A stretch of 64,000 bases of DNA, from contig OZ244065.1 in the NCBI GenBank assembly GCA_965215505.1, forward strand, positions 1,440,001 to 1,504,000, read 5' to 3'. Each line of letters opens with the position of its first letter. Position 1 is the first letter of the stretch. The notes beneath the pieces are model-generated. The model saw only the letters and a program-made list of their open reading frames with translations, had not been told where the DNA came from and ran no database searches. The DNA is from Capsulimonadaceae bacterium (GTDB lineage Bacteria > Armatimonadota > Armatimonadia > Armatimonadales > Capsulimonadaceae). Shown one piece after another: positions 5,434 through 60,805 of this stretch. The translations under genes were made by a program, and so were the position numbers.

Positions 5434-6525
5434 ATGGATGAGATACAGACGGGTTTGCATGCTGTCGGCCAGACGCCGGACTATGAGGCGGTACTGAGCG
5501 AGGTGGCGACCCTGCTGGAAGCCGCACGACGGGCGGCGGCCCGGTCGGTCAACGCCGTGATGACGGCGACCTACTGGCAGATCGGGCGGCGGCTGGTCGA
5601 GGTGGAGCAGGAGGGGCAGGAGCGCGCAGGTTATGGGACGCAGCTCCTGAAGCGACTTTCCGTTGATCTGGCGGCCCGGTTCGGGCGCGGCTTTTCGGAA
5701 CGTAATCTGGAACAGATGCGGCTCTTTTATCGGGCTTGGCCAATTTCGCAGACAGTGTCTGCGAAATTCGGGGAGGATGTCCAGTTCCCGCTGCCATGGT
5801 CCCACTACGTCCAACTATTGTCGGTCCAGTCGGACAAGGCCCGCAGCTTTTACGAAACCGAGGCCCTGCGCGGTGGGTGGTCGGGACGTCAGCTGAGTCG
5901 CCAGATCGGCACCCAGTTTTATGAGCGGACCGCTCTTTCTCGGAACAAAGCCGCCATGCTGACGAAGGGCGGCGTCCCCAAGCCGGAGGACGCCGTGACG
6001 GCAGAAGGCGAGATCAAGGACCCATTCGTACTGGAATTCCTGGGCCTGCGGGATGAGTATTCCGAACACGACCTGGAAGAAGCTTTGATCCGCCACTTGG
6101 AGTCGTTCCTGCTCGAACTCGGCCCCGACTTCACATTCGTAGCCCGCCAGAAGCGGCTCCGCGTTGGCGACTCCTGGTTTCGGATGGATCTGCTGCTGTA
6201 TCACCGCCGCCTGCGCTGCCTCGTCATCATTGACCTCAAAATAGGGGAATTCAGCCCTGCGGATGCAGGACAAATGAATCTGTACGTCAACTATGCCGCC
6301 GAACACCTGACCCTGGATGGCGAGAACCGGCCCGTCGGGCTGATCCTCTGCTCCAAGCCGAACGCCGCCGTCGCCCACTATGCGCTTGAAGGTTTAGGGA
6401 ACAACATCCTGGCTGGGGAATACCGGCTGATCCTCCCCGATCCCGCGCGTCTCGAAGCTGAACTTGCCCGCACGCGCCGCCTTTTGGAAGGCCCGGTACT
6501 GGACGAACACGGCGGCGCTCCTTGA
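5434..6525 (+). CDS. YhcG/DUF1016 family PD-(D/E)XK nuclease-domain protein
   Basis: TYWQIGRRLVE, GRGFSERNL, LPWSHY, KDPFVLEFL, FVARQKR, DLLLYHRRLRCLVIIDLK, GQMNLY. Confidence 0.92.
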   Translation: MDEIQTGLHAVGQTPDYEAVLSEVATLLEAARRAAARSVNAVMTATYWQIGRRLVEVEQEGQERAGYGTQLLKRLSVDLAARFGRGFSERNLEQMRLFYRAWPISQTVSAKFGEDVQFPLPWSHYVQLLSVQSDKARSFYETEALRGGWSGRQLSRQIGTQFYERTALSRNKAAMLTKGGVPKPEDAVTAEGEIKDPFVLEFLGLRDEYSEHDLEEALIRHLESFLLELGPDFTFVARQKRLRVGDSWFRMDLLLYHRRLRCLVIIDLKIGEFSPADAGQMNLYVNYAAEHLTLDGENRPVGLILCSKPNAAVAHYALEGLGNNILAGEYRLILPDPARLEAELARTRRLLEGPVLDEHGGAP

Positions 6526-6551
6526 CTTCCACCCCCATTTTGTGCTATTCT
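6522..6551 (+). promoter_or_regulatory. Putative sigma70 promoter of der
   Basis: TTGACT-N18-TATTCT with extended TG; the -35 overlaps the YhcG stop codon. Confidence 0.5.
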
Positions 6552-6624
6552 AATGGCTGTTTTGACCGCCCGGAGACACGCATCTTCCCCGAGAGTGCCC
6601 CAGCGGCAGGAGGAAGAAAACGCC

Positions 6625-8121
6625 ATGACCGACGCCCCCGCGCCTCAACCGGAAGACCATTCCGAGAGCCAATCTGTTAATCAGTCCGGTAATCAACTCG
6701 AAGCCGAGTATGATCCCGAATACCAGCCCAAAGCACGCCCCGAGTACCAGCCCAAGCCCCTCGTCGCCATCGTCGGGCGGCCCAATGTCGGCAAGTCCAC
6801 GCTCTTCAACCGGCTCGTCGGCCGGCGCATCGCCATCGTGGAGGACACGCCCGGCATCACGCGCGACCGGCTGTACGCCGAGGGCGACTGGAACGGCCGC
6901 GAGTACAGCCTCGTGGACACCGGCGGCATCCAGATGTTTGACCCGGACCCCCTGAAGGCCCAGATCCGGGCGCAGGCCGAGATCGCCATGGAGGAGGCCG
7001 ACGTCATCGTCCTCGTCGTGGACACGACCGTCGGGCTGACCTCGGACGACATGGAACTCGCCAACGCCCTGCGCCGCTCGCCCAAGCCCCTCATCGTAAT
7101 CGCCAACAAGGTGGACAACGGCGACCAGGAGAACCGCAACGTCGCCGAGGTGTACGGGCTGGGCCTGCCGAACGTCTTCCCCGTCTCCGCCCTGGGTGGG
7201 CGCGGCGTCGCGGACGCTCTGGATGCCATCGTCGAGCGCTTCCCGCCTGCGCTGCCCAAGGCCGGCGAGGAGATCGAAGACGACCGGATCAAGATCGCCA
7301 TTATCGGGCGGCCCAACGTCGGCAAGTCGTCGCTCCTGAACTCGATTCTGGGCGAGGAGCGCGCCATCGTCTCCCCCATCGCCGGCACGACGCGCGACTC
7401 GATTGACACCGCCTTCACCTTCCACGCCGCCGGGGGCGACCGCGAAGTCGTCCTGATTGACACGGCTGGCATCCGGCGGGCGGGCAAGATCCAGGGCAGC
7501 GTCGAGTACTACACCGTCCTGCGCGCCATGCGGGCCATCGAGCGGGCCGACGTGGTCATGCTGGTCGTGGACGGACACGACGGCGTCACCGACGGTGACA
7601 AGCGCGTCGGCGGCTACGCCCACGAGGCGGGCCGGGCGGGCATCATCGTCGTCAACAAGTGGGACGTCGGCCGCAAGGACGTGCTGGAGGAGATGCCGGG
7701 CCAGAACCCGATGACCGTCTTCTCCGCCGAGCTGCGCGACGCCATGCACTTCATGGCCTACGCGCCGCTGGCCTTCACGAGTGCCCTCACCGGCAAGGGC
7801 GTCACGGCGGCCGTCGAGGCCGCCCTGGACGCCGCCGAGGCGCACTCCATGCGTATCCCGACGGGCGAGCTGAACCGCATCGTCCGGGACGCCGTGGACG
7901 CCCACCCCTACAACGATAAGGGCAAGTCGCTTAAGGTCAAGTACGCGACCATGCCGACCGTCAAGCCCCCGACCATCGTCCTGTTCGTCAACGACCCCGA
8001 GCTGATGCACTTTTCCTACCTGCGCTATTTGGAGAACCGCATCCGCGAATCCTATGCCTTCGAGGGGACGCCGCTGCGGCTTCAGGTCCGCAAGGCGGCG
8101 AAAGACAAGGAGAAAGAGTGA
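6625..8121 (+). CDS. der: Ribosome biogenesis GTPase Der (EngA)
   Basis: Two GRPNVGKS P-loops, DTGG/DTAG, NKVD/NKWD, C-terminal KH-like domain; AGGAGG before ATG 6625. Confidence 0.97.
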   Translation: MTDAPAPQPEDHSESQSVNQSGNQLEAEYDPEYQPKARPEYQPKPLVAIVGRPNVGKSTLFNRLVGRRIAIVEDTPGITRDRLYAEGDWNGREYSLVDTGGIQMFDPDPLKAQIRAQAEIAMEEADVIVLVVDTTVGLTSDDMELANALRRSPKPLIVIANKVDNGDQENRNVAEVYGLGLPNVFPVSALGGRGVADALDAIVERFPPALPKAGEEIEDDRIKIAIIGRPNVGKSSLLNSILGEERAIVSPIAGTTRDSIDTAFTFHAAGGDREVVLIDTAGIRRAGKIQGSVEYYTVLRAMRAIERADVVMLVVDGHDGVTDGDKRVGGYAHEAGRAGIIVVNKWDVGRKDVLEEMPGQNPMTVFSAELRDAMHFMAYAPLAFTSALTGKGVTAAVEAALDAAEAHSMRIPTGELNRIVRDAVDAHPYNDKGKSLKVKYATMPTVKPPTIVLFVNDPELMHFSYLRYLENRIRESYAFEGTPLRLQVRKAAKDKEKE

Positions 8122-8122
8122 T

Positions 8123-8572
8123 TTGACCGAGATCGCGCGGATGCGCTTCATGAGCAGCCAGAAACCGTCCGAGCGCGGGATGCTCCTCCTGAACGACGAC
8201 GGCACGCTCCAAATAAAGCCCACCGAGGAGCTGCGTGACGAGATGGCGCGGCTGGAAGAGGTCGCCCTGGACCGGGCGCGGACGTTCGGGACGCGGCTCG
8301 GCGTCAGCCTCCTTGTCCTCGGGACACTCGCCGTGGGGGTCGGCTGGGCCGTCGGGCGCGTCTTCGGCAAGATGGGCTACAACCTGAGCCTGCCGCGCCC
8401 CGTGGATGCCGTCTCGCTGACGCACGAGGAGGGCGGCGGCGTCCGCCTGACACTGCGCGGGGCGAACCGCTTGCAGGTCATCCAGATGGCCTGGAACCCT
8501 GACGAGGTGCTGCAAGGCGAGACGGAGAACTTCGTGGCGAAGTTCGACGCGCTGCGCCGGAAGCCGGAGTAG
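8123..8572 (+). CDS. Hypothetical single-pass membrane protein
   Basis: One hydrophobic helix (LGVSLLVLGTLAVGVGWAV); start TTG 8123 or ATG 8141; tightly packed after der. Confidence 0.65.
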   Translation: MTEIARMRFMSSQKPSERGMLLLNDDGTLQIKPTEELRDEMARLEEVALDRARTFGTRLGVSLLVLGTLAVGVGWAVGRVFGKMGYNLSLPRPVDAVSLTHEEGGGVRLTLRGANRLQVIQMAWNPDEVLQGETENFVAKFDALRRKPE

Positions 8573-19389: not shown

Positions 19390-21000
19390 TCACCAGCCGC
19401 CCTTCTTGGCCCGCTCCGGCAGCGGGTGCGCTTCCAAGTACTCGTCGTAGGTGCCGCGGAAGTCCAGCAGGCCATCTTCCGTGAACGACAGGATGCGCGT
19501 CGCCATCTCGGAGATCAGGTCCCGGTCGTGCGAAACGACGAAGGCCGTCCCGGCGAACTGCGACAGCCCTTCGGCCAGTGCCGAGACCGCCTCCAGATCG
19601 AGGTGGTTGGTCGGCTCGTCAAAGATCAACACCGGACTCTTCTCCAGCATCAGCTTCGCCATCAGCAGCCGAGCCGCCTCGCCCCCGGATAGCGCCTCGG
19701 TCAGCTTCAGACTCTCGTCGCCCTTAAACAACATCTGGCCGAGCAGGCCGCGCACGAACTGCTGCCCCTGGTTCTCCTCGTCAAAGCCCATCACCCAATC
19801 CAGGGCAAGGACGCCCGAAGGGATGCCGCTGCGGTAGTCCTGCGGGTAGTAGCCCCAGGTCATGCCCGTCCCCCACTTGACCGTGCCGGCGTCCGGCATC
19901 AGGTCCCCGACCAGGCAGCGGATGAGCGTCGTCTTGCCCACGCCGTTCGGGCCGATAATTGCCACTTTCTCGCCCCGCGAAACCTCAAAACTAATGTCCT
20001 TTAGAACGCACTGCCCGTCGAACGACTTGGACAGCCCCGCGACAGTGACGACCTCGCGGCCCGACGGCTTCCGCTGCTCGAACCGGATGTAGGGGCGCGA
20101 GATGTTGGACTTCTTCATCTCGGTCGGCGCGAGCCGGGCCATCTCCTTGCGGCGCGACTGCACCTGGGACGACCGCTGGCCGGCCGCGAAGCGGTTAACG
20201 AACTCCTGGAGTTGGGCGATCTTCTTGCCCTTGTCCTTGTTGTCGTTCTCGATCCTTTGCCGCGCCTGCATCTTGTGTTCCACCATGTCGTCGTAGGAGC
20301 CGGGGTAGTTGATGATGGTGTCGTAATCAATGTCGGCGATGTGGGTGCAGACCGCATTCAGAAAGTGCCGGTCGTGCGAGATGACGATCAAGGTGCCTTT
20401 ATAATCCAGCAGGAATTCTTCCAGCCAGTGGATCGTCTCCAGGTCCATGTAGTTGGTCGGCTCATCCAGCAGCAGGGCGTCGGACCCGCCGAACAGGGCC
20501 TGGGCCAGCAGGACGCGGAACTTGTAGTCGTTGGGCAGGCTCGCCATCAGGTCGGAATGCTTGTCATCGGGGATGCCGATGCCGCGCAGCATCTCGGCTG
20601 CCTCCATCTCGGCCTCGTAGCCGTTCTCATCCGCGATCATCGTTTCCAGGTCCCCCAGACGCTCCATCATGGCGTCGGTGAACTCCTCCGCCTCGCAGAG
20701 CGCGTTGCGCTCCTTCAAGGCGTTCCAGAGGGTCGGGTTGCCCATCATGACCGTGTCGATGATGCGCTCGCCGTCGAAGGCGTTCTGGTTCTGGCTCAGG
20801 ACGCCGACCTTGCGCGGGCGGCTGACCGTCCCCCGGTTGGTCGGGTCAATCTCGCCGGTCAGGATTTTCATGAATGTGGACTTGCCCGCCCCGTTGGGGC
20901 CGGTCAGGCCGTAACGGTTGCCGGGCGTGAATTTGACGGAAACCTGGTCGAAAAGGGTGCGCGTTCCGTATGACTTGGAAACGTCCTGGACGGTGATCAT
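19390..21000 (-). CDS. ABC-F family ATPase (YbiT-like)
   Basis: Two ABC cassettes (GPNGAGKST, LLLDEPTN; GPNGVGKTT, LSGGE, FDEPTNHLD), no transmembrane segments. Confidence 0.93.
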   Translation of the reverse strand: MITVQDVSKSYGTRTLFDQVSVKFTPGNRYGLTGPNGAGKSTFMKILTGEIDPTNRGTVSRPRKVGVLSQNQNAFDGERIIDTVMMGNPTLWNALKERNALCEAEEFTDAMMERLGDLETMIADENGYEAEMEAAEMLRGIGIPDDKHSDLMASLPNDYKFRVLLAQALFGGSDALLLDEPTNYMDLETIHWLEEFLLDYKGTLIVISHDRHFLNAVCTHIADIDYDTIINYPGSYDDMVEHKMQARQRIENDNKDKGKKIAQLQEFVNRFAAGQRSSQVQSRRKEMARLAPTEMKKSNISRPYIRFEQRKPSGREVVTVAGLSKSFDGQCVLKDISFEVSRGEKVAIIGPNGVGKTTLIRCLVGDLMPDAGTVKWGTGMTWGYYPQDYRSGIPSGVLALDWVMGFDEENQGQQFVRGLLGQMLFKGDESLKLTEALSGGEAARLLMAKLMLEKSPVLIFDEPTNHLDLEAVSALAEGLSQFAGTAFVVSHDRDLISEMATRILSFTEDGLLDFRGTYDEYLEAHPLPERAKKGGW

Positions 21001-21078
21001 GACAATATATTCCCTGTAAAACGTACTTGGTGAGTTCGCGTTGATTATACCCCAGCTTTTTCGCGGCAGCGGGGCGGA

Positions 21079-21100
21079 CTCGTGTTATAATAACACCGAG
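21079..21100 (+). promoter_or_regulatory. Extended -10 promoter inside an inverted repeat
   Basis: TGTTATAAT within GTGTTAT-A-ATAACAC; GAGG RBS and ATG 21110 follow. Confidence 0.55.
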
Positions 21101-21109
21101 GCGACAAAG

Positions 21110-22393
21110 ATGGTTTCTTCGGTCATGGAAGCGGATGAAGTGGACTCAGGCGGGGACGGTGTGGCGGCGGCGGCCTACCGGCTGACTAGCGACGGCGCGC
21201 TCCTGCGGGCGTATCCCTGGCAGGCAAGCCTCTACGAGAGGCTGTCCGACCCGGCGGGCGAACTGGGAGGCCTTTTGCCCGCCCCCACCGGCGCGGGCAA
21301 GGTCGAGGCGGTCGTCATCCCGGCCCTGGGCCTGCATCGGGGCGGCGCACCGCGCCGCCTGTTCCTGATCGGGCCGGACGGCTCGCCCCTGGACGATTAT
21401 CTGTACCGACTCGTGCCGTACCTGAAGGCGTTCGTCCAGGCCGACGAGACGCCCCGGACGGTGTGCCTTGACCTGAACGAAGATGAGGCGCAGGGGAACG
21501 AGTGCCGCCGCTTCTTCCCCGACGGGTCGGAGGACCCGCACGTCGTCACCAATCCCCTGGAAACCGACGTGGACCTGATCCTGACCACGTTCTCGCGGTT
21601 CGGGGAACTGTTCTTCGGCAGCGGCGGCGTCCACGCCCTGCCCACCGCCCTCCTCGGCCCCCAGGAGGACCAGCCGCGCCGCGACCTATTCTTCTTCGAC
21701 GAGGCGCACGGCTACGGCGACGCCTTCGCCCGCTTCCACCGGCTGGTCGAGTTCCTGTTCGCGCAGGATTTAGACGTCCTGGTCGCCACCAGCACCATGC
21801 CGGCCGCCCTCCGGGAAGAACTCGGCTTCCTGGACCTCCTGCCCGGCGGCGACGGCCGCCCCGCGCCCGTCCGCACCCTCGCGTACAAATCTTCTTCGGA
21901 CCCGCTGGCCCTCATCGAGTCCGAGATCCGCCGCGCCTACTACCAGAACTCGCGCGTCTTCGGCGTCTTCGAGACGCCCGAGGACGCCGAAACCCTGCTC
22001 GCCCGCCTCGCCCCCGCCTACCCGCACTCCGTCTACGCCTACCACCCGAGCCAGCCCGCCGAGACGCGCCGCCGCACCTACGCCCAGCTCCGCGAACTCG
22101 AAAAGGAGGGCGAGGGCTACCTGCTGCTGACGACCGGGGCGGCACTGGAGTCGAGCGACCTGGACGCCACGGTCCTGCTGTCCACCCTCTGCCCCCCCGA
22201 GAACCTGATCCGCCGCGCGGGCCGCGTCAACCGCCGGGGCGACCTCCCCTCCGCCCAGATCGTCCTCGTCGGCGACGACTTCGCGCCCGATTCGCGCCCC
22301 CTGGACCCCTCCCAGGCCGCCGACTACCTCAGCGCCCTGCGCGCCCAGGCCGAACTGCCCTTCGACGCCGAGTTCTGGAAGGCGTTCATCTAA
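21110..22393 (+). CDS. Stand-alone Cas3'-like SF2 helicase (no HD domain, altered motifs)
   Basis: YPWQ, APTGAGKVEA, LILTT, FFFDEAHGY, ATSTMP, YH, LLTT...DLDA, LCPPENLIRRAGRVNRRG. Confidence 0.78.
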   Translation: MVSSVMEADEVDSGGDGVAAAAYRLTSDGALLRAYPWQASLYERLSDPAGELGGLLPAPTGAGKVEAVVIPALGLHRGGAPRRLFLIGPDGSPLDDYLYRLVPYLKAFVQADETPRTVCLDLNEDEAQGNECRRFFPDGSEDPHVVTNPLETDVDLILTTFSRFGELFFGSGGVHALPTALLGPQEDQPRRDLFFFDEAHGYGDAFARFHRLVEFLFAQDLDVLVATSTMPAALREELGFLDLLPGGDGRPAPVRTLAYKSSSDPLALIESEIRRAYYQNSRVFGVFETPEDAETLLARLAPAYPHSVYAYHPSQPAETRRRTYAQLRELEKEGEGYLLLTTGAALESSDLDATVLLSTLCPPENLIRRAGRVNRRGDLPSAQIVLVGDDFAPDSRPLDPSQAADYLSALRAQAELPFDAEFWKAFI

Positions 22394-22398
22394 AACAC

Positions 22399-22827
22399 AT
22401 GGAAGACCTGATCTATCAGTCTGAAGTCCCTTACGACCTTGCCGCCGTGGAGGACGCCGCGCGCTCCTGCGGCTACGCCCCGCACCGCCACGAGGTCGCG
22501 GGCGTGGCATTCCTCGACATCGCCGTCACACCCCCGCCCTACCCGAAGACCTGGCAGTGGGTGAAGGCCAGCCGGGAAACCGTCAACACCCTCGTCCGCC
22601 GCGACCCCGAAGCGATGGTGCAGCACGCCTCCGGGACTGCCTACGTCGTTGACTTCCCCACCTCCACCCTGCCCGAACTCGCCGCATTCCTGAAACGCCT
22701 CCTGCTCGCCTACGGCGGCTGGGTCGGCCTGGAAGACGACGCGGCGGAAGACGAGCCGGTGGCCGTGTACAGCGCGGCGGACGTAGAAACGATAGTAGAA
22801 CACCCGCTGTTTGCTCTGGCCTCGTAG
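22399..22827 (+). CDS. Hypothetical protein (142 aa) directly after the Cas3-like gene
   Basis: ATG 5 nt after the upstream stop; high GC3. Confidence 0.7.
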   Translation: MEDLIYQSEVPYDLAAVEDAARSCGYAPHRHEVAGVAFLDIAVTPPPYPKTWQWVKASRETVNTLVRRDPEAMVQHASGTAYVVDFPTSTLPELAAFLKRLLLAYGGWVGLEDDAAEDEPVAVYSAADVETIVEHPLFALAS

Positions 22828-22870: not shown

Positions 22871-22950
22871 GAGGGCGGGGACAAGCCCCGCCCCTACACA
22901 GATGGCTTTCCATGGCGTCCCGTAGGGGTAGGGCTTGTCCCTACCCCCTT
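22871..22950. repeat. GTAG-type REP doublet (family A)
   Basis: GAGGGCGGGGACAAGCCCCGCCCCTAC...GTAGGGGTAGGGCTTGTCCCTACCCC; spacer shares GATGGCTT with the 11763 copy. Confidence 0.85.
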
Positions 22951-23253: not shown

Positions 23254-24255
23254 ATGCGTTTAGGGTTTGCGGTCAAAGTCATCGGGCACGGCGGGAACCT
23301 CGCCACGATTCCCGCCGAGGCGGGGATGCCGTCCAACGACGCGCGGCGGTGGCAGAGCGGGCCGCATGTGCGTCAATCCATCGAGTACGTCCGGGAGATC
23401 TTCCACTATCTGCACAAGGCGGACATCCACATGTACCGGATGTCCTCGGACTTCGCCCCCTACCTCACCCACCCGGACATGCCGCAGTTCCACAACCAGT
23501 TAGAGGAGGCGAAGGACGAGCTGGCCGACCTCGGGGCGCTGGCGCGCGACTACGACATCCGCCTCAGCCTGCACCCGTCGCAATACATCCTGCTCAACGC
23601 CCAGGACGACGAGGTGGCCCGCAAGAGCATCGTGGACCTGAACGCGCAGGCGAAGCTGCTGGACGCGATGGGCTGCGGGCCGGAGGCCGTCGTCGTCACC
23701 CATGTCGGCGGGGTCTACGGCGAGCGCGAGGAGAGCCTGGCGCGCTTCATCCGGCGCTACAAAGAGCTGCCCGAGGAGACGAAGCGGCGGCTCGTCGTGG
23801 AGAACGACGACGTTTCTTACGCCGTCACGGACACCCTGCGCGTCCACGAGGCGACCGGCTGCCCACTCGTCTTCGACAACCTGCACCACTTCTGCTTTAA
23901 CCCGGAGGGCCTGCCGATGCGCGACGCGCTGGCATCGGCCCTGGCGACATGGCCCGAGGGCGTCACCCCGAAGATCCATTATTCGTCGCCCTCCACCGAC
24001 TTTGAAACCAGCGTGGAGAAGGAGAAGGGCGCGACCGGGCGCGACCGGACCGTCACAAAGCTGCACTCGCCCAGGCTCAAGGCGCACGCGGACTTCATCA
24101 ACCCGATGGAGTTCGTTCAGTTCTGGGAGGCGGTTGGGGCGGACGGCCTGCGACCCTTCGACATCATGCTGGAGGCGAAGGCGAAAGACGTGGCCCTCCT
24201 GCGCCTGCGGCGGGAACTCGCGCGCCAGAAAGAGCGTCCTATCAACGCCGGATGA
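23254..24255 (+). CDS. uvsE: UV DNA damage repair endonuclease UvsE
   Basis: MRLGFA, YRMSSD, RLSLHP.QY, HVGG, LVVENDD, FDNLHH, PKIHYSS, HADF, DIMLEAKAKD. Confidence 0.95.
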   Translation: MRLGFAVKVIGHGGNLATIPAEAGMPSNDARRWQSGPHVRQSIEYVREIFHYLHKADIHMYRMSSDFAPYLTHPDMPQFHNQLEEAKDELADLGALARDYDIRLSLHPSQYILLNAQDDEVARKSIVDLNAQAKLLDAMGCGPEAVVVTHVGGVYGEREESLARFIRRYKELPEETKRRLVVENDDVSYAVTDTLRVHEATGCPLVFDNLHHFCFNPEGLPMRDALASALATWPEGVTPKIHYSSPSTDFETSVEKEKGATGRDRTVTKLHSPRLKAHADFINPMEFVQFWEAVGADGLRPFDIMLEAKAKDVALLRLRRELARQKERPINAG

Positions 24256-24435: not shown

Positions 24436-24801
24436 ATGAGTAACATGCGGACGTCGATCAAGTGCAACTGCGGCCAGCGCGTCATCGCCAAGGACGTGGT
24501 CCAGCACGGGTACTATCTGCGCCTCTTCGGTCCGAGCTTCGTCTACGTCAAGTTCCGCTGCTCGCGCTGCAAGAAGCTCGGCGAGCAGTTCATCAAGCAG
24601 GAGGAATGGGAAGAGGGCATCCTCAAGGACACCGCCGTGGAGGTTTCGCACGGCGAGAGCGAGCAGTTCATCGTTCAAGGCCCGATTGACATCAACGAAG
24701 TCATCAATTTCCACTTTGAACTGGAGAAGATGCCCGATCTGAAATCATTGGGGGCGCCGCTGCCGCCCAAGAAGCAGAAGTCCCGTTCCACGCCGCACTA
24801 G
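24436..24801 (+). CDS. Small zinc-ribbon protein of unknown function
   Basis: GGAGGT RBS; CNCG and CSRC cysteine pairs; high GC3. Confidence 0.8.
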   Translation: MSNMRTSIKCNCGQRVIAKDVVQHGYYLRLFGPSFVYVKFRCSRCKKLGEQFIKQEEWEEGILKDTAVEVSHGESEQFIVQGPIDINEVINFHFELEKMPDLKSLGAPLPPKKQKSRSTPH

Positions 24802-26825: not shown

Positions 26826-27242
26826 GTGCCTTCAAAGAAAGACTTAGATCGCTACCGTGGTGAGATCGGGGAATCGATTGTTGCTTATGAACTCCTAAAA
26901 CGCAACTGGAACGTCATGAAGAACTTGGGCGGTCACGGCTATGACCTGCTGGCAATCAGCAATGATGCCCGTATCACACGACGCATTGAGGTGAAGACAA
27001 CCGACCCGGAACTAAAGACCGGTGCCTTCAGAGGCCAGCTAACAGTTCTCCTTACTGAGTCGGAGCTTGCGGCAGCCGACTTTTTTGTCTTCTACATCCA
27101 CGGGCATGAAGCATTTTTTGTCATCCCCAGGTCGGCTTACCCAGCAAGCCGCTCCGTTACCGTCAATGTAGGTAGGGATCGCAAGATAGCAGCGGGCACC
27201 GCGTATCAACCTTACCGCAACAAGTGGGATGAGCTGGACTAG
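26826..27242 (+). CDS. Small PD-(D/E)XK nuclease-fold protein
   Basis: GEIGE...L...W.V, GYDLLA, IEVKT; strong GAGGAGG RBS; lower GC than the flanks. Confidence 0.72.
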   Translation: MPSKKDLDRYRGEIGESIVAYELLKRNWNVMKNLGGHGYDLLAISNDARITRRIEVKTTDPELKTGAFRGQLTVLLTESELAAADFFVFYIHGHEAFFVIPRSAYPASRSVTVNVGRDRKIAAGTAYQPYRNKWDELD

Positions 27243-34538: not shown

Positions 34539-35587
34539 GCATGATCTACGAGTGCCCGAACTGCCACACGCCGCAGGCATCGGGCCGGACGGCCTGCCGC
34601 TACTGCGGGGCGGAGTTCGACAGCGCCGTCCCAGACGACGCCTTCGTGCCCGATGGAACCGCTTCCGAGCCGCTTCCGGCGGAGCCGGCCATTGCCGCCG
34701 CGCTTGAACCCGGTCCTGTTGAATCGGCCGCCGCAGAAACCGGAGGGCCTGGGGCGGTTGTCTACGAGGCTCCGAGCGCCGAGGAGGCGGAACCCGTGGC
34801 GGCGGAACCCGTGGCGGCGGAACCCGTGGCGGCGGAACCCGTGGCGGCGGAACCCGTGGCGGCGGAACCCGTGGCGGCGGAACCCGTGGTGCAGGAAGCC
34901 GCAGTGGAAGAGGCCGAACCCCTCCCGCCCCAGGCCGAAATACCCGCGCCGCCTCTGGACGTTCCCCCGGCACCCGCCGAGACGCTGCCCTACCAGTCCT
35001 CCCCGTATCCGCCCCCCGCGTACCAGGCCGCCCCCACTGATGCCGATCCAGCCGACCCGCCCGCGCCGCAGCGACCGCCATTCGAAAAGACACTGACGCG
35101 TGCCCTGCTGGTCGCCTTCCCCATCGTCCTCGTCGTGGTGCTGGGGGCGGTCTTCTTCGCGCACAGCCTGGAATCGGGGCAGGACACGGCCCCTGCACCA
35201 CTGCCCGCCATCGTGCCTACGGCAGCCTCAACGTCTGCGGGGACGCCCGCCCCGCCGCCCTACGTCCTGAACGGGTCGGGGGCGACGACCGGGACCGAGG
35301 CAGACCCTCGGGCCAGGCAGATGGTGGGGCGCTGGGAATCCAAGAAACTCGACTTCTACGTCTTCAACGCGAACAAGACGGGGACGCGCGGCAGCCTCAC
35401 CGGCAAAGGGCCGCAGGGGACATTCCTTTGGGCTTTGGTCCAGAACCATCTGATCCTTTATGCCGACAAGCAGGAACAACTGACTTACAGCAAAGGGCCG
35501 GACGAAGACACCATGTTCCTGCGCGGCCCACGCGGCGGCAAGTACGTCCAGTACGCGCGGACCAAGGCACAGCCCGAAAGGCCCTGA
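34535..35587 (+). CDS. Zinc-ribbon / Pro-Ala-Glu-rich linker / TM / extracytoplasmic domain protein
   Basis: CPNC...CRYCG at the N-terminus, AEPVA repeats, one TM helix; ATGA overlap with the pilin gene. Confidence 0.8.
34787..34891 (+). repeat. 15-bp coding tandem repeat x7
   Basis: GCGGAACCCGTGGCG encoding AEPVA (last unit AEPVV). Confidence 0.95.
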
Positions 35588-40625: not shown

Positions 40626-41237
40626 TCATCCTTTCACCAAATCTTTGATTATTATCCGTGAAGCTATCAGATACTGTTTAACCAAGATAGGGTGACGACG
40701 GTTGGATAACAGAAGCACAGATGGAGTAATGGAGCTAGCAAAAGCTCCATAATGCCGCTGAACTACTGGCTTGTATTTTCGCGCTGTATCCGGGGTATTA
40801 TGCGCGATGTGGTTTCGGACACGGCGCATGTCGTCAATCAATGTCGCATGGCGATCAAAAACGGTAATCAAATTTTCAGTCGTTGGTAGCAGATATCTGA
40901 CGTTGTTTCTAATTTCAACCGCTTGGTTCCACTTAATTTTGTACGCTTGTAGGGGAGTAGCACGACCGTAGTTAGCTATGTTGGTGGACGCCATTCGCAT
41001 GCTGCGACAACGCACAGCTATAGTTGGAATGGTATTGTCCAAATACATGGCACCGCATAAGACCTTCAGCGTTATTGACTGAAAGTGTTCTTCCAGCAGT
41101 GAGAACAATCTTATCATGACTAATTCAGCTGCCATTTTTTGATAGCGTGGATCAAGAGAAGTCATGTTATCTACTAAATCCATGAGCCGTTCGCTTTCCG
41201 CCCGCTGCTGGCGGACGTTGACGTCCAGACGATGCAT
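40626..41237 (-). CDS. HEPN-domain protein
   Basis: IRLFSLLE and RNHIAH (Rx4H); AT-rich. Confidence 0.72.
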   Translation of the reverse strand: MHRLDVNVRQQRAESERLMDLVDNMTSLDPRYQKMAAELVMIRLFSLLEEHFQSITLKVLCGAMYLDNTIPTIAVRCRSMRMASTNIANYGRATPLQAYKIKWNQAVEIRNNVRYLLPTTENLITVFDRHATLIDDMRRVRNHIAHNTPDTARKYKPVVQRHYGAFASSITPSVLLLSNRRHPILVKQYLIASRIIIKDLVKG

Positions 41238-41244
41238 ATGGCGT

Positions 41245-42246
41245 TCAGATACCTAAATAAGATCTCAGATAAGCGTCGCGTAAACTCCTTGACTTAATCC
41301 GGTGAGGATTAGAGCTGCAAGCTACATAGAAATCTGCATCATCTTTTGGCCTTTCTGATATAGGCGTGTCAGATTCAAATATTTCATCGACAATAAACAA
41401 AGCATCTTCGATCTGACTTGTTCCTAGCCGCGCTTTGGCTAGAATCAAAAAGAGACTGAAAAAGATAGGTGAACGTGAGAATATTGTATCGCGGATAGCC
41501 CCAATGGGTAATGAGACGATTTTGTTAAACGTCTCGTTGAGTACAGTCTGAATAGCTTGCCGTTCAGCAAAGTCTTCGTCATACTTCTTGTATGTATCAT
41601 CAATTTGTTTCGCGCTATAATCTTGCAGGCCGTATAGAAGATTTACCACAAGTTCTGACGTGAACTGAACCTCGGTCATTCGAGCAATATCATTGGCGGA
41701 GAACAAGTTGAAGTCCCTCCACAATTGGAGACGAACGGATGACTCCTTCAAGCAAAATTGTTTGAATTCTCCACTATAAGCTGCATTCCTTTTCTCCTGT
41801 GGATTTAGAGTTTTGCTTACAGAGTTCAGCCGTCCGAACATTTCTATAACATCACTGTCGGACGCACCAATTAGGTAGCCCACCGACAAAGATGTCATCA
41901 GAAAGTTTCTCTTTTCAGAAGATGTTAAATGTTCATACTTCACCGGGCGCTCATGGTTCGGATGTCGAGCCGCGTAGTGTCCCTCAGAGTATTCGATGAT
42001 GGATCTGAGACGTTGTTGTCCATCAACAACTTCTTTGATACTTTTTTCGTTTTCCAAATCCAAGAAATGTCTGATGTACAACGAGGGTACAGGCTGCTTT
42101 TCTAAGATTGTATTAATGAGGTAGGCCTTTTGGGGACGATTCCACACAGAACGCCGCTGATACCAAGGACTAAGATTCAATTCATCAAGTCTAGCAAGGT
42201 TAAGAATGTCTTGAATTACATGTGTTTGGTAATCAACTCGGTCCAT
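41245..42246 (-). CDS. DUF262 (GmrS/ParB-like) protein
   Basis: YQRRSVW, LI.TIL...PVP, VVDGQQRL, F.RLNS, L..QE.RNA; AT-rich. Confidence 0.9.
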   Translation of the reverse strand: MDRVDYQTHVIQDILNLARLDELNLSPWYQRRSVWNRPQKAYLINTILEKQPVPSLYIRHFLDLENEKSIKEVVDGQQRLRSIIEYSEGHYAARHPNHERPVKYEHLTSSEKRNFLMTSLSVGYLIGASDSDVIEMFGRLNSVSKTLNPQEKRNAAYSGEFKQFCLKESSVRLQLWRDFNLFSANDIARMTEVQFTSELVVNLLYGLQDYSAKQIDDTYKKYDEDFAERQAIQTVLNETFNKIVSLPIGAIRDTIFSRSPIFFSLFLILAKARLGTSQIEDALFIVDEIFESDTPISERPKDDADFYVACSSNPHRIKSRSLRDAYLRSYLGI

Positions 42247-42417
42247 AAGGAATGCCTTTCAGTGTTATAATAGAACGTATTCTGCATCTGTTGTGATGCA
42301 TGTTGAAGAAGATTCGCCACGACAGCGTTACAATCCTGTGCTTTCGCAACATAATTGTCAACATTCTCTCGGCATCGTCATATATCACCGGTTGCGGATA
42401 ATCATTCCACAAGAAAT

Positions 42418-42774
42418 TCAACTGGGTGGCGCTCTGACGCATACTGCAACACTGGCCGCGATGCGATCCACGGCGTCCGCTGGCAGTACGCCCACTCTGT
42501 CCCGAAACCGCAGGAGTGACACGGTCCGTATCTGGAGCGCATCCGCCGCCGATAGCTTTGTCAAACCATTCTGCGGGGTGGGCGTCAGACGAGTCATCCA
42601 GACATAACCCCTGTAGGACTCGTTCCAGCCCGTGATCGGTATCATAACCCTTACCTGCAAGCGCCCCAACTGCTCATCGCCTATGACGACGGCTGGACGT
42701 GTTTTGCCTGTTTCTGATCCTTCCGTGGGATCGAAGTCCACCCGCCAGATTTCGCCGCGTAGCGGGCTATCCAT
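42418..42774 (-). CDS. PemK/MazF family toxin
   Basis: RGEIWRVDFDPT.GSE..KTRPAVVI, NGLTK.S.AD..QIR.VS..R. Confidence 0.93.
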   Translation of the reverse strand: MDSPLRGEIWRVDFDPTEGSETGKTRPAVVIGDEQLGRLQVRVMIPITGWNESYRGYVWMTRLTPTPQNGLTKLSAADALQIRTVSLLRFRDRVGVLPADAVDRIAASVAVCVRAPPS

Positions 42775-43084
42775 GCAGATCGTCCGTGTATTCGTGGAAG
42801 TCGCCTGTCTCCAGATCTGCCGTAAGTTGTCGCTCCGCTTCCGGCAAAGCCCTATCCGCTTCGTAGGCCGGTATGGCCCTATCCACGGACGCCTTTAAAA
42901 ACGGTTCGCGCTCCTCCGGCGATAGCGTCATTAGATACCTGGGGTCAACTTCTTCTGACTGGTAGCTCACGCTTCGCTCGAACCGGGCCAAATGATCCAT
43001 AACCTTCGAGTAGCCGTGAGTGGCGACGAGAGACTGCAACGACTGGTCCAAGATTTGTTCGTCGTGATTCAGCGTTGTGTTCAT
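42767..43084 (-). CDS. Putative antitoxin of the MazF-type toxin
   Basis: Small acidic protein overlapping both the polA stop (TAATG) and the toxin start. Confidence 0.7.
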   Translation of the reverse strand: MNTTLNHDEQILDQSLQSLVATHGYSKVMDHLARFERSVSYQSEEVDPRYLMTLSPEEREPFLKASVDRAIPAYEADRALPEAERQLTADLETGDFHEYTDDLHG

Positions 43085-60170: not shown

Positions 60171-60518
60171 ATGCTGACCGCCCAGGAAGTCTACGCCGCC
60201 GCCCGCACCCTGCCGCTCCCGGAACGTCTGCGCCTCGCGGCATTAATTCCCGATGAGGTGACCCAGCCCACGCGATTGATTTCAGACCCTCAAGACCTGC
60301 CTGGCTATAGTGATGTTTGGACCGAAGAGGATAGGGAAGAGTTTGCGGCGCATTGCGCGCGCCGATCCCATCCCGGTTCATCCGACGATGACGATCTCCT
60401 CTCCCCGGCAGAAGAACTGGAACGTCTCAGACAGACCATGCCGTCGGGTGCAGTTGCTCCGTCGGGTGCAGTTGCTCCGTCGGGTGCAGTTGCTCCGTCG
60501 GGTGCAGTTGCTCCATGA
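60171..60518 (+). CDS. Antitoxin-like small protein, possibly degenerate, with a repeat-derived tail
   Basis: GGTACAAT -10 and AGGAG RBS; LP..ERLRLAALI and YSD.W.EED patterns; ends in PSGAVA x4. Confidence 0.55.
   Translation: MLTAQEVYAAARTLPLPERLRLAALIPDEVTQPTRLISDPQDLPGYSDVWTEEDREEFAAHCARRSHPGSSDDDDLLSPAEELERLRQTMPSGAVAPSGAVAPSGAVAPSGAVAP
60441..60514 (+). repeat. 18-bp perfect tandem repeat x4
   Basis: CCGTCGGGTGCAGTTGCT repeated without spacers. Confidence 0.95.
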
Positions 60519-60805
60519 ATGGCACGGCTAGGGTTTTATTGGGGTATTCAGCCTTCGGTTAGAAAGCACCGCTTCTGCACTGGTCAGCACTGGCTACCCG
60601 GAGGGCAGACCCGCAGGGCGCGGGGCTGGGAGTGCTTTCCGAGTGCCGCGAAGCGGTACTTCTTGGCGTCCTCGCCGTCCAGCCGTGCGTTTCAACGCAT
60701 GGTCTGTCCGGCCATGGCTGGGTCTGACATGCAATCACGCTGGCGAGTAGTAGGGGGACAAGATTCGCATGGCGATTAGGCAGTCAGGTTTGGTATAATA
60801 CCCCC

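Follow-up and report, generated by a model that had tools for sequence, protein, structure and literature searches.

Components of CRISPR-Cas systems have been exapted by transposons, plasmids, derived defence modules and viruses, as laid out in published reviews (PMC6452270, PMC8730458). The closest precedent for the gene considered here is AcrVIA2, a viral homologue of the type I helicase Cas3 that lacks the HD nuclease domain and acts as an anti-CRISPR, according to a preprint (bioRxiv 10.1101/2023.06.24.545427). A Cas3 protein domesticated by a bacterial host and independent of CRISPR is not described in any of the papers that the literature searches turned up. We present here a gene encoding a solo helicase of 427 amino acids (aa), P0001, located in a stretch of 64,000 nucleotides (nt) from the chromosome of a Capsulimonadaceae bacterium (assembly GCA_965215505.1, contig OZ244065.1, positions 1,440,001 to 1,504,000), which is called the window in what follows. 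The protein is very probably an exapted Cas3' core that is maintained independently of CRISPR-Cas. The more complete statement, according to which this core has also become a binder rather than a motor, is the reading towards which we lean, with correspondingly less assurance.

The open frame extends from 21041 to 22393 on the plus strand and, from the ATG at 21110, a start point that is the same in the orthologues, to the stop codon at 22391-22393, it codes for 427 aa. RecA1 occupies approximately residues 15-250 and RecA2 residues 255-390, followed by a short helical tail. The gene and the motifs that matter most are the following:

21110..22393, plus strand: gene of the Cas3'-derived helicase core (P0001, 427 aa), based on profiles, the AlphaFold2 (AF2) model and selection analysis (dN/dS)
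21281..21307, plus strand: Walker A (motif I), APTGAGKVE, residues 58-66, with the Mg-binding Thr replaced by Val
21698..21709, plus strand: motif II, DEAH, residues 197-200, retained
22211..22234, plus strand: motif VI, RRAGRVNR, residues 368-375, arginines retained

A preliminary description of this DNA, made from the letters alone, had claimed an intact 427-aa frame of helicase superfamily 2 (SF2) with the order of motifs typical of Cas3. All the motif strings quoted at that time (YPWQ, APTGAGKVEA, FDEAHGY, LLTTGAALESSDLD and LCPPENLIRRAGRVNRRG) are indeed present in the translation. The same holds for the claimed absence of an HD domain, as Pfam, NCBIfam and PADLOC match only the helicase part of the protein.

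Several comparisons assign P0001 to the Cas3 lineage. In Pfam, PF22590 (Cas3-like_C_2) scores 38 bits against a cut-off of 27, whereas the DEAD (14.1 versus 26) and Helicase_C (17.7 versus 23.5) models both remain below theirs. The three NCBIfam models that match are all cas3 models, and all are far under their cut-offs (e.g., TIGR01587, cas3_core, 47.9 versus 102.45, and TIGR02621, 60.6 versus 400). Cas3 models account for 20/21 PADLOC matches, and the type IV DinG model reaches an E-value of 0.02. When a profile built from 26 family members is run against the sequences of the PDB, the eight matches with E < 0.3 are all Cas3, the best one being 8wtk (E 2.6e-11); they are followed only by RecQ4 (E 0.38) and UvrB (E 0.55). 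The AF2 model (pLDDT, the predicted local distance difference test, 78.6; pTM, the predicted template modelling score, 0.83) consists of two alpha/beta domains corresponding to the two-RecA core of SF2 helicases. On this model, Cas3 cannot be told apart from RecQ or DEAD-box proteins by Foldseek taken by itself. With VIA-align, the top three structures are stand-alone Cas3' chains with Z scores of 24.6 (8wtk), 22.4 and 21.1, compared to at most 20.5 for other SF2 proteins and 19-20 for RNA-bound DEAD-box cores. Since the best matches are thus to Cas3 and not to other helicases, P0001 is Cas3-derived. An assignment to the DEAD-box, RecQ, Lhr or DinG helicases was considered and finds no support, the non-Cas3 matches scoring below their cut-offs or more weakly than Cas3.

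An exhaustive profile search arranges the relatives of P0001 in three tiers: a solo family of 410-440-aa proteins scoring > 300 bits, then proteins of 590-640 aa and 860-960 aa that reach ~160-254 bits and cover the whole query, and finally ordinary Cas3 proteins with lower scores. Second-tier proteins exceed the cut-off of TIGR01587 in 10/10 cases tested, and their best PADLOC model is a Cas3 model (~200 bits). We examined 80 of their loci, which come from Poribacteria, Chloroflexota, Cyanobacteria, one Armatimonadetes metagenome-assembled genome (MAG) and others. The same type of 234-aa gene, here called X, lies directly upstream of the helicase in 79/80 and Cas6 is found downstream in 71/80. 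One annotated locus reads cas8b-cas7b-cas5b-X-cas3'-cas6-cas4/cas1-cas2. Plasmid pTT27 of Thermus thermophilus HB8 also has a gene order of the cas8b-cas7b-cas5b-X-cas3'-cas6 type, and its Cas3' (TTH_RS11150) shares 34.7 % identity with P0001 in the region of residues 64-413. The 900-aa forms carry X as an N-terminal fusion to the helicase. Two stand-alone copies of X are without a Pfam or PADLOC match; two fused forms match PF01966 with E-values of 0.005 and 3.8e-4. An H..HD motif can be made out by eye. The X protein upstream of the nearest Cas3' is therefore named only “probable Cas3''”, i.e., the presumed HD nuclease, because its likeness to HD domains is weak.

When the solo family is compared to this nearest Cas3' group by hhalign, the probability is 100 and the E-value 7e-76, with family residues 16-426 pairing with residues 5-416 of a 604-aa Cas3'. 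As the alignment stops at residue 416 of 604, the solo family lacks the last ~190 aa, which form the C-terminal domain. A quick maximum-likelihood tree (LG+G4, with only the Shimodaira-Hasegawa-like approximate likelihood ratio test, SH-aLRT, for support) was computed from 77 helicase cores cut out with the family hidden Markov model. All solo-family members (19/19) group in a single clade (SH-aLRT 100), whose stem measures 0.88 substitutions per site and which sits inside the group of Cas3' proteins encoded in cas operons. Its sister is a 588-aa Cas3' (P0144, support 94), in which motif VI already begins with R. As far as these alignments and the tree can tell, they show the solo helicase to be a Cas3' core that became detached from a type I CRISPR-Cas operon, with a single origin. 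The domesticated Cas3' derivative proposed in the preliminary description is thus borne out by profiles that match only Cas3, by Cas3' chains at the top of the structural comparison, by a clade nested among genuine cas-operon Cas3' proteins and, as shown below, by purifying selection and the status of a family core gene; best matches to SF2 helicases other than Cas3 were not seen among the significant profile matches.

The solo helicase is a vertically inherited core gene of the Armatimonadota family that includes Capsulimonas. Within the genus, it occurs in 22/23 other genomes (70-89 % identity), in 21 of them as one open frame and in one (G012) in two pieces on two contigs; the sole congener without it is a 75 %-complete assembly of 2.6 Mb. 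When 400 further genomes from the phylum are scanned with the profile, the gene is detected in 28/28 sampled genomes of the same family (9 genera). Among those from other genera of the family it is present in 11/11, with a full-length open frame in 9/11. In the sister family the scan finds it in 0/24 genomes. The remaining 348 genomes of the phylum give eight matches: seven are weak (43-52 bits), lie in frames of 722-898 aa and are presumably true Cas3, and the last is a 594-aa Cas3' of a cas locus that adjoins a type I-D module. Both scans combined, 33/34 family genomes tested carry the solo gene. Database names likewise place the solo family in Armatimonadota, with CCAX7_27660 of Capsulimonas corticalis at 60 % identity.

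The ratio of nonsynonymous to synonymous substitution rates (dN/dS) of the helicase is 0.15-0.16 versus the two closest genomes and 0.08-0.21 versus 11 congeners; for the neighbouring ABC-F gene, the comparison with the two closest genomes gives 0.03-0.07. An intact frame, a dN/dS of ~0.15 and conservation throughout the family all agree with the earlier view that the gene is not a decaying pseudogene. None of 50,697 phage records matches the solo helicase (0/50,697), and the plasmid matches are true Cas3' proteins with < 35 % identity.

A few individual records deserve mention. In two other genera, the solo helicase is read in two frames (L022, G024:C4, ~5998-7300; L021, G202:C1, ~5995-7300). 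The interruption falls at the junction of the two RecA domains (query residues ~256-276 and ~276-290), and each piece is an open, conserved frame; genuinely split genes and indel errors in long-read assemblies are both conceivable. One family member with 78 % identity, P0024, comes from a record labelled as a MAG of “Janthinobacterium lividum”. As all other named members belong to Armatimonadota, this label is probably a binning or labelling error. On an Armatimonadetes MAG contig (L023/L029), two different Cas3-type helicases are found in a row at a single locus, in the order Cas7d, Cas5d, a 915-aa type I-D Cas3', a 234-aa probable HD protein, a 594-aa Cas3' and Cas6. The 594-aa protein belongs to the clade nearest to the solo family, and the locus may represent a hybrid or tandem I-D/I-B arrangement.

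Does the solo helicase nevertheless work with a CRISPR-Cas system? The 64-kb window contains no CRISPR array, the repeat search having returned short tandem repeats only, and tblastn with 13 Cas proteins finds the P0001 gene as the sole match in it. The earlier statement that there is no CRISPR context is therefore correct for the window but not for the chromosome, where a search for Cascade and HD genes reveals a complete, low-GC type I-B locus ~3.24 Mb from the solo gene (G000:C1, ~4,697,000-4,712,000, L014). This locus encodes Cas7/Csh2, Cas5b, an 821-aa HD-helicase Cas3, Cas4 and Cas1b, and its array has ~85 copies of a 30-nt repeat. A 605-aa protein without a family match is the candidate for the large subunit, probably Cas8b, and the locus as a whole was probably acquired horizontally. 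Its 821-aa Cas3 shares 31 % identity with P0001 over just 97 residues.

Among 39 genomes of the family, Cas1 is detected in 18, cas3_core above the cut-off in 19 and Cas3-HD above the cut-off in 18. Twelve genomes carry the solo gene and yet have Cas1, cas3_core and Cas3-HD all under the cut-offs (G001, G005, G013, G017, G019, G020, G022, G024, G177, G202, G295 and G325), several of them being assemblies of 1 to 5 contigs. The solo helicase is thus maintained regardless of the presence of CRISPR-Cas, and since these 12 genomes keep it without Cas matches, a dedicated role in CRISPR immunity, be it as a regulator, a decoy or a spare helicase, is unlikely. A conserved solo Cas3'' HD protein acting in trans was also considered and rejected, as HD matches above the cut-off are restricted to 18/39 genomes, all of which except G256 also have a cas3_core match above the cut-off.

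The sequence motifs were tallied in an alignment of 131 family members, each at least 380 aa long, and an outgroup of 15 Cas3' proteins taken from among the nearest ones. Walker A is G[ST]GKT in 14/15 outgroup proteins, the remaining one having GKM. In the family, GK is followed by T in 42 members and by I, V, L, M or A in 77, GR is followed by T in two and by L, V or I in nine, and one has L. Consequently T/S is kept in 44/131 and lost in 87/131, and the Lys is lost in 12/131. Motif II is FDEAH in 112/131 members and DE[AS/V]H in all 15 outgroup proteins; 10 family members no longer have the His of DEAH. Motif VI is LIRRAGR[CV]NRRG in 103/131, the rest being near variants, versus the QRAGRCNR type in the outgroup; at position 368, at least 90 % of the family have R where 93 % of the outgroup have Q. 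The departures from the Cas3 consensus noted previously are therefore real as regards GKT to GKV and Q to R in motif VI, and DEAH is indeed kept. As for the suggestion that motif VI has been rewired, it is valid for the Q to R exchange but not for the GRxNR core, in which the family does not differ from the nearest true Cas3'.

In the deep genera, Walker A reads GAGRLE (g12, two genomes, and g17), GAGRTE (g16) or, in the split copy of g14, CAGRLE. Arg replaces the Walker A Lys in 4/6 full-length genes from other genera, and motif II of the deep genera reads DEAQ, DEAI or DDAH. State changes were counted on a tree of the family computed after removal of the Walker A columns and amount to at least 12 for the Walker A T/S, at least two for the Walker A Lys and at least four for the DEAH His. 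Nine positions that are at least 90 % conserved in the outgroup drop below 60 % in the family, including T65 (Walker A), G313/R314 (HGR of motif IV) and A344/G348 (motif V). In comparison, 56 positions are identical and conserved in family and outgroup, among them G61, G63, K64, E66, T159/T160, D197-H200, T229, T342, R369, G371, R372, N374 and R375. A further 67 positions are fixed to at least 90 % in the family and differ from the outgroup consensus; they include R368 and an inserted RGGAP loop (residues 77-81). The overall picture is one of rapid remodelling in a burst and of strong constraint thereafter, with relaxation specifically at the residues required for Mg-ATP hydrolysis and coupling.

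How could a Cas3' core have become a cellular protein of this kind? It left its type I operon, was parted from the HD nuclease, lost the C-terminal domain as well, and after a burst of change was fixed as a chromosomal gene of the family. ATP-driven translocation, which feeds DNA to the nuclease, would have been given up. We infer that the protein is no longer a motor because the Walker A Thr varies, because motif IV has lost its HGR and motif V has also been lost in part, and because the Lys is missing in the deep genera; judged from the sequence, a non-motor mechanism has an even chance of being correct. The features that stay fixed are the threonines contacting nucleic acid (motifs Ib/Ic, III and V), the DE of motif II and the arginine-rich motif VI. 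The retention of the nucleic-acid-contact motifs together with motif VI suggests stable binding of single-stranded nucleic acid and/or nucleotide. The two RecA domains might close on single-stranded nucleic acid and/or nucleotide, which would remain bound with little or no turnover, and the helicase core might serve as a clamp or sensor with further partners. The idea of a sensor or scaffold had already been voiced in the preliminary description and fits the repeated loss of Walker A residues. A bolder proposal, which we put forward tentatively, is that this would be the first case in which a bacterial host, and not a virus or a transposon, domesticated the type I effector helicase, turning the core without nuclease and C-terminal domain into a hydrolysis-independent nucleic-acid clamp or nucleotide sensor and a core factor of the family, with the ATP pocket (Lys/Arg, DE and the arginine-rich motif VI) acting as a ligand switch.

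The immediate surroundings of the gene comprise the following features:

19390..21000, minus strand: divergent gene of an ABC-F ATPase, context only (Pfam ABC_tran twice, and ABC_tran_Xtn)
21083..21091, plus strand: extended -10 promoter element, TGTTATAAT, located 18 nt ahead of the ATG and without a -35 match
22399..22827, plus strand: orphan gene encoding a 142-aa protein (P0002), 5 nt after the helicase stop codon
22868..22950, no strand assigned: palindromic element resembling repetitive extragenic palindromes (REP-like), with terminator-like hairpins at 22872-22894 (minus) and 22925-22947 (plus)
23254..24255, plus strand: gene of the UV-damage endonuclease UvdE, context only (PF03851, E 1.5e-55)

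The ABC-F and uvsE-type neighbours and the 142-aa open frame 5 nt downstream are thus found as had been reported, and so is the host-like codon usage: the GC content at third codon positions (GC3) is 0.91 for P0001 and 0.83 for P0002, which is typical of the window. The claim that the gene has its own promoter fares less uniformly. A scan for consensus -35/-10 promoters gives 0 sites for the P0001 gene, but the extended -10 element, TGnTATAAT, is present in 12/12 orthologous upstream regions. A palindrome upstream of P0001, GTGTTATAATAACAC, was entertained as an operator and rejected, since it is better read as the extended -10 promoter; it has a single genome copy at 0-1 mismatch and eight occurrences at 2 mismatches. 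Rfam has 0 matches in the 64-kb window. The arms of the REP-like element recur at ~25 further sites of the genome, and this element likely marks the end of the transcription unit, in which P0002 is probably co-transcribed with the helicase. Downstream of the UvdE gene, the order is small CxC...CxxC protein, gatC and gatA.

P0002 is present in 2/11 congeneric loci and was not found in the loci of other genera. The protein database holds 23 relatives (59-100 % identity), all from the closest sub-clade, and in this closest clade the P0002 and helicase families share contigs. Its dN/dS is 0.16-0.21 versus the two closest genomes. No family was found for it in Pfam, NCBIfam or PADLOC, its Atlas neighbours are clusters of “hypothetical protein” only (at most 0.91), and its AF2 model (pLDDT 75.5) has no PDB fold match at E <= 0.001, the best being 0.065. 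A co-fold of helicase and P0002 (score 0.00, mark 0.32) weighs neither way. P0002 is thus a young, lineage-specific addition to the transcription unit and not a conserved partner.

ABC-F adjoins the helicase in 11/11 congeneric loci and not in the other genera examined. In three genera (g1, g13 and g15), uvdE and variable genes follow the helicase and separate it from the small CxC protein; in the deep genera the order is helicase, small CxC protein, gatC. As a functional partner, UvdE was set aside because the arrangement is confined to three genera and the slot is variable, and its adjacency is kept as a weak hint at DNA-damage processing. The 121-aa CxC...CxxC protein (24436-24801) was likewise rejected as a conserved partner: it is found throughout the order, in 33/38 genomes of the family and 22/32 of the sister family, and on other contigs than the helicase in several genomes. 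In some congeners (L024 and L025, ~7242-8426), the gene of a 391-394-aa LacI/GntR-like regulator overlaps the stop codon of the solo helicase by ~19 nt. As this regulator fills the slot of P0002, the site just after the helicase is a hot spot for insertions.

Elsewhere in the window, an island of low GC content (0.50-0.58) occupies 40626-43084 (minus strand) and is flanked by a MutS2 gene, which extends to 40439, and a PolA-like gene, from 43084 onwards. The island encodes a 333-aa GmrSD_N/DUF262 protein (PF03235, E 2e-18) with an adjacent 203-aa open frame without a family, as well as a PemK/MazF-type toxin (PF02452, E 2e-20) preceded by a partner frame of 105 aa, and looks like a small defence and toxin-antitoxin insertion. 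Just after gatA, a 138-aa open frame of the PD-(D/E)XK endonuclease family (26826-27242, plus strand; PF11645, E 7e-9) has a GC3 of 0.59, below that of its neighbours. In-frame tandem repeats are present at 34748-34912 (a 15-nt unit, ~9-10 times) and 60441-60530 (an 18-nt unit, ~3.5 times).

The main rival to the exapted, non-motor Cas3' core is that the protein still functions as an ATP-dependent helicase or translocase and now serves cellular housekeeping, for instance in DNA repair or RNA metabolism, the Walker A changes being tolerated. Several points weigh for it and hence against the reading that we prefer. Walker A T/S is present in 44/131 members, including the Capsulimonas orthologue, FDEAH in 112/131, and the motif VI arginines are near-invariant; the conservation of FDEAH and of these arginines means that ATP binding is probably still selected, and some members may hydrolyse ATP. 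A genuine 910-aa Cas3 of the outgroup carries GKM, so a hydrophobic residue at the Walker A Thr site is alone no proof of lost function. A dN/dS of ~0.15 is compatible with an active enzyme, as is the uvdE gene downstream in three genera, although this adjacency, which would also be the clue to a pathway for the clamp, is not seen in five deeper-branching loci. Moreover, the neighbourhood amounts to chromosomal synteny with a variable slot and forms no operon pointing to a function, and the small zinc-ribbon-like gene located next after the helicase in deep genera also exists in the helicase-less sister family. On the side of origin, the AF2 model is of only moderate confidence (pLDDT 78.6), the tree is a quick LG+G4/SH-aLRT one in which the long stem could distort the placement, and the support of 94 for the sister relation with P0144 is not starred. 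However, a motor is difficult to reconcile with a Walker A Thr site that changed at least 12 times, with Lys to Arg and Thr to Leu fixed together in deep genera, with the loss of the DEAH His in 10 members and of the GR of motif IV, and with the absence of the C-terminal domain, which in Cas3 closes the DNA channel. An active housekeeping helicase is for these reasons rather unlikely, even if it comes nearer to the data than any other alternative.

The remaining explanations are far less probable than an active helicase. The solo gene could form a two-gene, defence-like or toxin-antitoxin-like module with P0002, as had been envisaged previously; the spacer of 5 nt without a separate promoter, purifying selection on both genes and the shared contigs in the closest clade would fit, but P0002 is limited to this sub-clade, congeners have other genes in the slot and PADLOC does not match it, which makes such a module very improbable. 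Hardly more credible, and if anything slightly less so, is the earlier option of a trans-acting accessory, regulator or decoy of type I CRISPR-Cas. The host genome does possess a type I-B system, and HD-less Cas3 homologues of phages inhibit CRISPR according to the preprint (bioRxiv 10.1101/2023.06.24.545427). Against this stand the 12 genomes that keep the gene without Cas1, Cas3 or Cas3-HD above the cut-offs, assemblies of 1 to 5 contigs included, a conserved chromosomal synteny that is neither prophage nor island, the lack of matches in phage records and the short, 31 % identical alignment (97 residues) with the resident I-B Cas3. Finally, a decaying remnant of a lost CRISPR-Cas locus would account for the missing HD and C-terminal domains, the missing cas neighbours and the degenerate Walker A; it is effectively refuted by the conservation data, i.e., full-length open frames in 21/23 congeners and in 9/11 genomes of other genera, a dN/dS of ~0.15, and 67 positions newly fixed to at least 90 % across the family.

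If the exapted Cas3' core is confirmed, it would demonstrate that type I systems can give rise, by conversion of their signature helicase, to a cellular gene of an entire lineage. The solo family would then offer a natural series leading from an SF2 motor to a non-motor (GKT, GK plus hydrophobic residue, GRL), of interest for both CRISPR evolution and the study of pseudo-enzymes. There is also a practical aspect, as some solo proteins are labelled “CRISPR-associated endonuclease/helicase Cas3” in public records and can therefore yield false type I calls in Armatimonadota. Experiments would be possible in Capsulimonas corticalis, a cultured species with an orthologue of the GKT type (CCAX7_27660).

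In relation to known systems, the solo family stands closest to the Cas3' proteins of cas8b-cas7b-cas5b-HD-cas3'-cas6 operons (TTH_RS11150; solved structures 8wtk and 7tr8), with which it shares the SF2 DEAH two-RecA core, the order of motifs and 31-35 % identity over ~350-410 residues. Unlike them, it has no C-terminal domain and no adjacent HD, Cascade genes, Cas6 or array, and P0001 does not reach the cut-off of TIGR01587. Moreover, it has lost the Walker A Thr and the GR of motif IV, has exchanged Q for R in motif VI, has 67 newly fixed positions and is inherited vertically, independently of CRISPR. In the exon junction complex, eIF4AIII is an ATPase-arrested SF2 clamp. A minimal two-RecA SF2 core without accessory domains is common to eIF4AIII-like clamps and the solo family, and the likeness is an analogy of mechanism only: there is no kinship of sequence family (Pfam DEAD 14.1 versus 26), and the clamp mode is here a proposal. 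AcrVIA2 and AcrVIA2.1 resemble the solo family in that an HD-less Cas3 helicase homologue has been co-opted for something beyond target shredding (bioRxiv 10.1101/2023.06.24.545427). By their description there, they are set apart from it in size, AcrVIA2 having about the length of Cas3 and AcrVIA2.1 1,128 aa. They also belong to viral or anti-defence loci and act on CRISPR immunity, whereas the solo helicase is a 427-aa product of a chromosomal core gene that is also found in genomes devoid of CRISPR.

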